IMG/VR virus record: IMGVR_UViG_2511231131_000010
Length of the DNA: 46,425 bases
Direction: 5' to 3' (one strand)
DNA from: a virus
Taxonomy: Duplodnaviria > Heunggongvirae > Uroviricota > Caudoviricetes
Part shown: one piece after another, positions 42,001-45,000 of the stretch
Layout of the letters: every line of letters begins with the position of its first letter
Numbering within the stretch: the first letter of the stretch is position 1
Position numbers: made by a program

Positions 42001-45000
42001 TGCCGGGTCATAACGGCATTTATCCTGCGCGCACGTCTGAGGGTAGGCATTGTGCGGATACTTTATTGACTGGCCTGGCGTCTGTCAGGGGCGGGAGAGC
42101 ATCAACATGAGCATCAGAACCTACGCAGTGAATTGCAATGACGCATGGCTAAACACCGAAGGTGATGACATCTCCGGCTCATACGTTAAGTACAAAGACC
42201 ATCAGGAAGTGGTTGCCGCTCTTGAGGCCAAGTGCGCGGCGCTGGCAGCGGAGAATGCGGGAATAAAGTCTGCAATTCCAGAATCACGGGATATTGAAGA
42301 TGACAATGACAATATGGATGACGTATCTCTCGCGGAAGACTTCGGGTTCAATCATGCAATAGAACGGATGAGGAGACAGATACCTGAAACGCCAACCACT
42401 GATGCTTTCCTGGCTGAAGTCCGGGCGCAGGGGGTGGATGCTGCTATAGAAGCTGCAAAAAATCTGGTGGCCCAAGAATATGAGTATAAGGATTTCAAAG
42501 CGGCGCAGAGTGATTGCTGTATGTACCCTGGTTCAGACCTGGTAGGGAAGGTTGAAATGACTGAGTGGTTAGTTGACTTTGCTGCCCAGCTTCGCAAAGG
42601 AGGCAACCAGTGAGCGAAATTAATTACCAGGCACTGCGTGAGGTGGCGGAACGTGCAATTCCAGCAATGGAACGCCTGTTAATGTTGCCAGCTGATGATG
42701 ACTTGTTAAGTGAACAGGAACTTAAAGATTACGGTGTGGATATTGATGCGCTCAACGCCTTCAAATTTCTGACCGGACCAGAAACCGTGCTGGCACTGCT
42801 GGATGAACGGGAAAGAAACCTGCAATACATCAAAAGCCGCGATCAGGAGAACGAGGATATTGCGCTAACGGTAGGGAAGCTGCGCGTTGAGCTTGAAGCA
42901 GAAAAACAGCGGGCAAAAGTTCTATTTATGGAAAATGCTCGGCTTAAGTCAGGCATAGCCGGTCTGATACACCTCGGTATTCGATATGCAGATGTTGAGG
43001 TCATGAAAATTGCTGGAGATGCCCAGCTTTCTACCCCATGCACTGACAGCATCATAAACAGCATTGCAACAGGCATTCGCATCAAAGGAGAGTGATATGG
43101 CGTTAACACACCACGAACTCTGTCAGATTGCGTACAAGTTCCTTAAGCGCAACGGGTTCAAGGTTTGCTTTCATGACCGCTTTGTTGCTGTAACCAGTAC
43201 CGGAGAACAGCCAGATGCTATGGGATTCAGAAATTCAGCATCATGCCTGATAGAGGCGAAGTGTTCTCGTGCTGACTTGTTGGCAGATAGAAAAAAGCGT
43301 TTCCGTAAAAATCCCTCACTTGGCATGGGCGACTGGCGATTCTTTATTAGTGAGCCGGAAATTATTTCAGTTGAGGATTTACCTCCCGGCTGGGGATTAC
43401 TTCACGTTGTTAACGGAAGAGTACGGAAAGTACATGGATGGCCCAGGGGTAATTGCTGTTGGGGTAATCCTGACGATAAGCCATTTACTGGGAATAAGCA
43501 GGTTGAATGCGATTACATGTTATCTGCATTAAGGCGCATGGAGTTGAGAGGGCACCTTAATGAAATATATGACGGTGTGATTGTTAATAAGAAAGAAGGA
43601 AACGCGGCATGATCACTATTACCAAAGGGCGACTGCTGACAATCAAGCAGTGGCGCGAAACATACGGACCGGGTAGCAACGTTGTACTGCCAGCAGAAGA
43701 AGCGGAAGAACTGGCACGAATTGCACTGGTATCGCTGGAAGCAGAGCCGGTGGCAAAGATTATAGCTCATTACCCATTAGGAGTTGACGTAGGCAAACAA
43801 AAGTTCGTACAGGCCATTGGAGAGCTTCCTGACTTTGGCGGATATCTATTTGCCGCCCCGCCAGCGCCGGTAGTGCCGGAAGAAGCAACTCCGGAAAACG
43901 TAGAAATGCTCTCTGGCTATGTTTCCACGTACAAATTAACCGATAGCGAGCGCGATATTGCTGCCGAAATATGGAACGCCTGCCGCACCGCCATGCTTCA
44001 GTCCGGAAACTTTCGGGAAAGCAAGAATTCGTCAACCAATAATTTTCGGGAAATCCCGGAAGCGTCAACCAGCTCTCCGGTAACTCCGGCTCTTCTGCCT
44101 GGTGGTTTCACCATTGAGGAGGCGAAGGAATTACATGAAGACCTGGTACGCAGCCACATAAGCAAGGCCTTAAGTGGCGAAAAGATGAAAAAGAAAGATC
44201 GCGATGCTGATTTGCGCTGGATTCATGGCGTTATAGTTCAGGCAGCGTGGTTTGTAAAAGCATCACTGGAGCAGAATGCACTATCGGGCAACTCTCCGGT
44301 AACTCCGGATGGTTGGATAAGCTGTAGTGAGCGAATGCCGGACGACAGGCAGGAGGTGAATCAATGAGCTGGCCTGATGCAATCGTAACTCTGGGGGTGG
44401 TATTCGCAGCAGCGTTTGTTGTGTTCTCGATTTGTCGATGGGGATAACCACATGTTCGCTTTGATTCAACGCGGTCAGATATACACGGACAGAGCTGGAT
44501 ACCCCGTGGTGATTACTCGCATCACTGAGCACTCAGTGTTCTTTCGACGGATGGACGGACGATCCGGGCGGGTACGCATTGGTGAGTTAAACTGCCTGTT
44601 CGAACATATTGACCACCAGGAGTACCGCAAAATTCTCGCGGACACTGAGCAGGAAAAGCACCTGAAAAAATTACGAGCCATAAAAAGGAAGTAAAGAATG
44701 AATAAAGCATTTGAACGATGGGTCCACCAGCGTTACGGCAATCGCTATGACCTGACGCGAGATGTTGACGGCTTCTACTGTCGTGAAGTTGTGAAGCGAA
44801 TGTTTGAAGTGTGGTGCCACTGCCGTGGATGAAAATTTTATGAGGTTGGCATGCAGACAATCATCTATCAGATAACCCCCAGCAAATGGTGTACGGAGAG
44901 AGTCCTCATTGCATCAACAGGGCTAAAGCCTGGCACCATTGAGCGGGCAAGAAGAAAGTCATGGATGCAGGGAAAAGAATACCGCCATTACGCTGTAGAA

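Follow-up and report, generated by a model that had tools for sequence, protein, structure and literature searches.

MmcB is reported to be a PD-(D/E)XK endonuclease by which Caulobacter is protected against mitomycin C and cisplatin (PMC9578287), and its domain family (PF06319, at that time DUF1052) was linked early to the archaeal Holliday junction resolvases (PMC1189080). In lambda and Shiga toxin (Stx) phages, the accessory stretch of the early-left operon has been discussed as the 'exo-xis' region; it is reported to influence prophage induction, which is required for Shiga-toxin production (PMC10834534). Here, we analyzed a set of genes in such a region of the virus record IMGVR_UViG_2511231131_000010, a stretch of 46,425 nucleotides (nt) that is called the window below and that belongs to a lambdoid, Stx-phage-like E. 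coli prophage or phage. Three open reading frames (ORFs), named ORF1, ORF2 and pep27 in this work, overlap one another near its xis and int genes. Our analysis indicated that ORF1 encodes a predicted PD-(D/E)xK nuclease of a large unnamed sister family of MmcB-like, homologous to but outside the Pfam MmcB-like family and probably also outside Hjc, and that ORF1, ORF2 and pep27 are probably three independent genes of the pL early-left ('exo-xis') operon and not a two-component system. Within the well-known PD-(D/E)xK superfamily, ORF1 would represent a new lineage that has no name yet, and the phage region that carries it is an ordinary mosaic one. The three genes, and the sites of ORF1 that carry its assignment, are located as follows.

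43097-43612, + strand: ORF1, 171 residues, predicted stand-alone PD-(D/E)xK nuclease of an unnamed family sister to MmcB-like (PF06319)
43175-43177, + strand: D27, an additional conserved acidic residue of ORF1
43199-43261, + strand: putative catalytic segment of ORF1, residues 35-55 (TGEQPD...IEAK), from conservation and model strands
43262-43339, + strand: family signature behind ExK, S57-R58-x-D60-(F/L)-L-x-D64-x-x-K67-x-F-R70 ... G76-M-G78-D-x-R81
43609-44367, + strand: ORF2, 252 residues, EaA/DUF551-class modular exo-xis protein, an allele without the DUF551 core
44364-44447, + strand: pep27, gene of a predicted 27-residue single-pass membrane micro-protein, conserved and unannotated

The frame of ORF1 runs from the ATG at 43097 to the TGA at 43610-43612, and AAGGAG is found 5 nt 5' of the ATG. 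The ATG of ORF2 (43609-43611) overlaps the ORF1 stop as ATGA (43609-43612), and ORF2 ends with the TGA at 44365-44367. TGEQPD corresponds to residues 35-40 of ORF1 and IEAK to residues 52-55, with a spacing of 13 residues between D40 and E53. The initial annotation had given the same coordinates, motif spacing and ATGA overlaps, together with a hydrophobic ORF of 27 residues and the proximity of xis and int, and all of these were reproduced.

We aligned 42 ORF1 homologues (33-88% identity) and found that the acidic and lysine columns were nearly invariant: D40 was present in 42/42 sequences, and D/E27, E37, E53 and K55 in 41/42 each. Behind the ExK motif, D60, G78 and R81 were invariant, and S57, D64, K67 and R70 were conserved in at least 90% of the homologues; W99-G100, E137 and A-L-R-R were further conserved features of the family. 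The AlphaFold2 model of ORF1 (predicted local distance difference test score, pLDDT, 82.6; predicted template modelling score, pTM, 0.78) is composed of a helix at residues 5-18, strands at 22-26, 41-45 and 48-54, a helix at 58-64 and a strand at 80-85, that is, the alpha-beta-beta-beta-alpha-beta core. In this model E37 and D40 lie on the approach to strand 2, and E53-x-K55 lies on strand 3. The PD-(D/E)xK motif call of the initial annotation was therefore borne out, as the predicted nuclease core is present and the motif residues are conserved. A chance occurrence of the D...ExK string was ruled out by its conservation in 41-42 of the 42 homologues and by its placement on the predicted core strands 2 and 3. 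On these grounds, we assign the PD-(D/E)xK fold and active site to ORF1 with high confidence, and the protein would be an active nuclease.

It may also be supposed that the fold is catalytically dead and that ORF1 only binds DNA or has a regulatory part. Inactive PD-(D/E)xK domains are known in general, and the activity of the ORF1 family is a predicted one. However, nearly all homologues, even at 33% identity, retain the acidic-lysine constellation; this speaks for selection on catalysis, and we regard a dead fold as very improbable.

The relatives of ORF1 were examined at several depths. ORF1 had no match in the Pfam, NCBIfam or PADLOC scans, and in PHROGs it was matched by families of 'unknown function' and, weakly, by one 'DNA repair protein' family. 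The phmmer comparison of ORF1 and ORF2 with the PDB sequences gave nothing meaningful. A word-indexed search found ORF1 homologues in 308 clusters at 90% identity, nearly all of about 160-190 residues and nearly all 'hypothetical proteins' of Enterobacterales. The exhaustive profile search (E ≤ 0.001) yielded 3,231 clusters at 50% identity, and the family was found in temperate and virulent phages as well as in bacterial chromosomes from Proteobacteria to Acidobacteriota, Bacteroidota and the candidate phyla radiation (CPR).

The profile of the ORF1 family matched 3dnx (SPO1766) by sequence (E = 2.6 × 10−4), with the D and ExK motifs aligned. D40 and ExK of ORF1 align to D and ECK of 3dnx, and the string SRxDFxAD is common to both. 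The hhalign comparison with 3dnx gave a probability of 97.8%, an E-value of 10−12 and 34% identity over 87 columns, and 3dnx itself belongs to the Pfam family MmcB-like (PF06319, 110.5 bits). Phage proteins named MmcB-like were among the BFVD neighbours of ORF1 (E-values from 7 × 10−7 to 9 × 10−5). With the Pfam models, PF06319 matched 12 of the 42 ORF1 relatives, all below threshold (best E = 2.9 × 10−4); an acidobacterial relative reached 19.1 bits where the gathering threshold is 22 bits. The model PF01870 (Hjc) had sub-threshold matches in 23/42 relatives (best E = 1.3 × 10−4). ORF1 itself was matched by PF06319 at no E-value up to 1, nor was it matched by PF01870. The closest relatives of ORF1 are repair and resolvase-type enzymes, not restriction enzymes.

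The initial annotation had also offered VRR-NUC as the family of ORF1. ORF1 and the VRR-NUC proteins (PF08774) are alike in small size, phage association, frequent helicase neighbours and similar motif spacing, but the PF08774 model did not match ORF1, and this part of the assignment is withdrawn. Because of the fold and active site, the match to 3dnx and the sub-threshold Pfam scores, the family is placed as a sister of MmcB-like and not within VRR-NUC.

Compared with MmcB-like (PF06319, formerly DUF1052/COG5321; 3dnx SPO1766; MmcB of Caulobacter crescentus), ORF1 is homologous and has the same fold, yet several differences were found. The segment K67-x-F-R70 ... G-M-G-D-x-R81 of ORF1 is an insert that corresponds to a gap of 7 residues in 3dnx, and ORF1 adds the conserved E37, W99-G100 and a C-terminal helix with E137 and A-L-R-R. 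In addition, ORF1 is phage-borne and lies in an early operon, whereas MmcB is chromosomal and SOS-regulated; within MmcB-like, such an SOS-regulated part in mitomycin C or crosslink resistance is known for the Caulobacter protein only (PMC9578287). The similarity to archaeal Hjc (PF01870) and AHJR-like nucleases is marginal and confined to the catalytic strands; relative to Hjc, ORF1 is about 40 residues longer and differs in its C-terminal half. NinG/Rap and RusA resemble ORF1 as accessory phage nucleases for branched DNA and occur in the same neighbourhoods as ORF1 homologues, but their folds and families are unrelated to it, and the likeness does not go beyond position and presumed role.

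ORF1 is a frequent gene that is labelled 'hypothetical protein' everywhere. It was found in 909/5,426 complete E. coli genomes (about 17%), and many Shiga-toxin prophages are among the carriers. With the assignment to the PD-(D/E)xK/MmcB-like lineage, this common gene of the exo-xis region, itself poorly understood, gains a testable function. In these genomes ORF1 occupied 1,048 chromosomal places and 248 plasmid places, and the latter may be phage-plasmids. In NZ_CP075632.1, which is 100% identical over 43097-44447, the PGAP annotation divides the ORF1 copy (L001 4001-4516) into a 'frameshifted' pseudogene of the first 59 codons and a protein of 110 residues starting from the TTG codon 62, and the cut falls right behind the ExK motif of the nuclease. 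phrog_16308 (58 residues) and the cluster P0052 (111 residues, 645 members) may be compared with these two parts. Since the frame is open and the length of 171 residues is conserved across genera, this division is likely an annotation artefact that has been propagated. A chimeric or frameshifted origin of ORF1 was ruled out in the same way, as full-length homologues of 171 residues are usual across genera.

We then considered the genomic company of the ORF1 relatives. Homologues were present in 642 phage records, including temperate lambdoid phages, Vibrio siphophages and Vi01-like virulent phages. A SNF2-type helicase gene lies directly upstream of the homologue in Vibrio phage MAR10, and the gp61 primase gene lies directly downstream of that in Vi01. 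In viral contigs, homologues follow a ResIII/DEAD helicase gene or stand between NinX and NinG; Ea22-like genes and dATP/dGTP pyrophosphohydrolase are also found as neighbours. Prophage homologues in Acinetobacter, Chromohalobacter, Geobacter and Maridesulfovibrio adjoin O/DnaC-like replication genes or DUF5131, and those of Acinetobacter and Chromohalobacter follow the O/DnaC-like genes. The scan of 80 genome loci was seeded with the narrower alignment A5, the broad alignment A4 being too diverse as a seed, and was dominated by chromosomal copies of Acidobacteriota/Terriglobia; here recR and dnaX adjoin the homologues in 22-25 of the 80 loci. The distant Terriglobia homologues appear to be chromosomal. 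At these loci (L103-L173, around 5001-9200), recR and dnaX are divergently oriented, and a CHAD/HD-domain gene is located upstream of the ORF1 homologue. The neighbourhood pattern fits an enzyme of DNA replication, recombination or repair and does not fit a restriction-like or defence nuclease.

We give about an even chance to the proposal that ORF1 is an accessory structure-specific endonuclease of DNA repair or recombination. ORF1 would be expressed from pL early after infection or induction, and would bind branched or damaged DNA such as replication and recombination intermediates. Cleavage would proceed through a two-acid-plus-lysine metal site using D/E27, E37, D40, E53 and K55, and may assist phage replication, recombination or repair. 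The role would be akin to that of NinG/Rap, RusA or VRR-NUC in other phages and to that of MmcB in Caulobacter.

An offensive or exclusion nuclease, which would degrade the DNA of the host or of rival phages for host shut-off or superinfection exclusion, was also considered. Many structural neighbours of ORF1 are PD-(D/E)xK restriction enzymes or CRISPR-ancillary nucleases (SdaI, Can2), and ORF1 resides among many moron-like genes in an accessory region and is found on plasmids too. However, its nearest relatives are of the repair and resolvase type, a methyltransferase or specificity partner is not consistently linked, and the acidobacterial copies are chromosomal and stand beside recR-dnaX. 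For expression in a lysogen, moreover, a simple consensus scan gave no promoter-like site on the + strand directly upstream of ORF1, the nearest being at 39010 and 39928. An exclusion function is thus quite unlikely, and a repair or recombination endonuclease remains the preferred reading.

The initial annotation had taken the overlapping ORF1 and ORF2 as a nuclease with its partner, possibly a defence or anti-defence module. We surveyed 80 viral loci with ORF1 homologues of 51-77% identity and compared the immediate downstream gene in 78 of them. These downstream genes formed 43 clusters unrelated to one another, and only 8/80 loci showed, within 4 kb, any similarity to ORF2. Conserved adjacency of the ORF1 and ORF2 families across diverged genomes was therefore not found in these 78-80 loci. 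The ATGA overlap of 4 nt recurs with many unrelated neighbours of the ORF1 homologues, both downstream and upstream, and it reflects operon packing, not partnership. Because of the diverse downstream clusters and the generic overlaps, ORF1 and ORF2 are not a dedicated pair. In complete E. coli genomes the ORF1/ORF2 junction probe was covered in 137 of the 909 ORF1 carriers (about 15%), and at E ≤ 1 neither ORF1 nor ORF2 nor any of four upstream proteins matched a family of PADLOC-DB. The claim of a nuclease and partner was thus not sustained, and the tempting inference of a functional pair from an overlap of stop and start codons proves wrong.

The surveyed loci also bear on a cassette, in which ORF1 and ORF2, possibly joined by pep27 and by the Ea22-like gene upstream, would act as a defence, anti-defence or toxin-antidote module, the nuclease being targeted, regulated or inhibited by the modular ORF2. 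All three ORFs are indeed joined by ATGA overlaps, but the same overlap is made with all kinds of neighbours. The downstream gene is of the same modular class as ORF2 in 14/78 diverged loci; the downstream genes nevertheless fall into 43 unrelated clusters, and no such partner was seen in the annotated or Pfam-scanned neighbourhoods of the homologues of MAR10 and Vi01 (virulent) or of the Acidobacteriota-dominated chromosomal loci. An Ea22-ORF1-DUF551 block stands intact in the nin region of other prophages, upstream of DUF968-RusA-Q, which would speak for a unit, but the low share of E. coli carriers with the junction, the lack of PADLOC matches for both proteins and the deletion of the DUF551 domain in the ORF2 allele of the window speak against it. 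Natural fusions are also known, Ea22::ORF1 (P0009) and ORF1::DUF551 (P0020), but each is a cluster of 1 member sequence. We therefore judge a functional cassette to be distinctly unlikely, and three independent genes in one operon to be the probable arrangement.

Two observations were made on these rearranged forms. The trio of an Ea22-like gene, the nuclease of 171 residues and a DUF551 gene also occurs in the rightward operon of other E. coli prophages (L086-L089, about 1205/1439-3409), upstream of hok, DUF968, RusA and Q; as the trio is found in both early operons, the block has moved between them. In P0009 the N-terminus of Ea22 is joined to ORF1 from residue ~11, and in P0020 residues 1-133 of ORF1 are followed by the C-terminus of DUF551. 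These fusions are most likely deletion products of a recombinogenic region.

ORF2 is, from its sequence comparisons, an EaA/DUF551-class mosaic protein that is common and shuffled and has lost its DUF551 core in frame. At least 7,985 relatives were found, mostly of 295-305 residues and named 'DUF551 domain-containing' with PF04448, and the exact sequence of 252 residues is present on 998 contigs under the names 'DUF551 domain-containing' or 'Eaa protein'. In ORF2 the match to DUF551 (24 bits) covers only positions 1-16 of the 68 profile positions, so the domain is not intact. Relative to full-length alleles, about 150 nt (50 residues) of the DUF551 core are missing at an in-frame deletion junction near 44345-44349. 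When the DNA was aligned to L088 (deletion region: window 44311-44367, L088 3237-3409), identity was 99% up to 44345; from there the alignment jumps by about 153 nt and resumes in the conserved 3' end, where the Shine-Dalgarno sequence and the start of pep27 are located. At the protein level the loss lies between CSERMPDD and PPQEV, as judged from 99%-identical full-length alleles including P0125 and L088. The truncated end is an established allele, because it is found on several different N-terminal mosaics. The three sites of ORF2 that concern these changes are listed here.

44070-44089, + strand: left copy of a 20-nt direct repeat, SSPVTP linker
44289-44308, + strand: right copy of the 20-nt direct repeat, NSPVTP linker
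44311-44358, + strand: DUF551 stub, residues 235-250 of ORF2, a partial Pfam match

The modules of ORF2 are joined by S(S/N)SPVTP linkers that are encoded by the 20-nt direct repeat, the copies of which are identical at 19/20 positions. They bound a helical module at residues about 155-228, and this module is duplicated in P0121, which suggests that module gain and loss in the ORF2 class may be repeat-mediated. Among alleles that are 97-100% identical over the first ~245 residues, the DUF551 core is hypervariable between the conserved edges CSERMP and THWMPLPEPPQEV, a pattern that resembles an exchange of cassettes at conserved boundaries. The NFRE repeats of ORF2 are encoded by an imperfect tandem repeat of 31 nt (44008-44071). 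The AlphaFold2 model of ORF2 was unusable (pLDDT 35).

ORF2 shares its region and its mosaic module-shuffling with the Ea22, EaA and DUF551-bearing exo-xis proteins of lambda and Stx phages (PMC10834534), and the full-length alleles of its class carry the DUF551 signature at the C-terminus. One phage record labels ORF2 as Ea22. However, the Ead/Ea22 coiled-coil domain (PF13935) had no match in ORF2, whereas two upstream ORFs match it strongly (E = 4 × 10−31 and 7 × 10−12), and the demonstrated pro-lysogenic activity of Ea22 is not transferable to ORF2.

The ATG of pep27 (44364) overlaps the stop of ORF2 as ATGA at 44364-44367, and the hydrophobic frame of 27 codons ends at 44447. A strong Shine-Dalgarno sequence, AGGAGGTG, lies upstream of it at 44351-44358. 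We compared six variants, from the window, L088, 933W, phage 18-1-2, PhiR49_2 and Stx2_EH2011. All six are exactly 27 codons long and follow the pattern M-[STI]-W-P-[DE]-A-(hydrophobic)-[IV]-C-R-[WC]-[GR], and every one is ATGA-coupled to the preceding gene. Five distinct variants diverge by 13-37% at the nucleotide level, and PhiR49_2 and Stx2_EH2011 differ at 3/84 nt. Judged by their C-termini and by the annotation of the records, the preceding genes belong to at least 4 kinds (DUF551-class, EaA, a coiled-coil protein and 'ACLAME 31'). A chance ORF was ruled out, as length, start, stop and residue pattern are kept despite this divergence and the different upstream genes. The pep27 locus was found in at least 926/5,426 complete E. 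coli genomes. No separate feature is placed on pep27 in the inspected records, a further record being without any annotation, and a collection of 15 billion proteins does not contain the peptide. By its conservation pep27 is thus real in the evolutionary sense, and it is predicted to be a separately conserved single-pass membrane micro-protein. It is a small concrete addition to the prophage micro-proteins worth testing.

A wider proposal would combine these genes. The ORF1 family may be a widespread unnamed clade of structure-specific repair or recombination nucleases with distinctive substrates, crosslinked or stalled forks for example, and at the same time form in lambdoid phages a portable cassette with Ea22/DUF551-class proteins and pep27 that modulate ORF1 or the lysis-lysogeny response to DNA damage. 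We consider this combination unlikely.

As for the setting, the 3' 16 kb of the window matches Stx-converting and related phages, and the stretch 43097-44447 is 100% identical to part of prophages integrated beside mlrA. The tightly packed early-left operon of the + strand follows a cI-type repressor gene (38250-38945) and has the order two Ea22-like genes, ORF1, ORF2, the 27-codon ORF, DUF4222, xis and int. The flanking genes are as follows.

42050-42613, + strand: Ea22-like ORF, the further upstream of the two (PF13935)
42610-43095, + strand: Ead/Ea22-like protein gene, adjoining ORF1 upstream (PF13935)
44452-44694, + strand: DUF4222
44698-44832, + strand: ORF of 44 residues between DUF4222 and xis
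44851-45105, + strand: excisionase (xis, DUF1233)
45139-46425, + strand: integrase

The promoter and terminator scan gave nothing above the shuffled expectation around ORF1 and ORF2. The Pfam scans run on the early-left operon ORFs of the window at 39000-42050 found no recombination genes of the exo/bet/gam type, and three early-left ORFs (39769-40134, 40523-41104 and 41600-41938) had no Pfam match at all. A promoter-like TTGACA-17-TAATAT is located at 39010-39038, just past the cI-like gene and after a terminator-like hairpin (38957-38973). An identical copy of the 44-residue ORF at 44698-44832 is marked by PGAP as a pseudogene with an internal stop.

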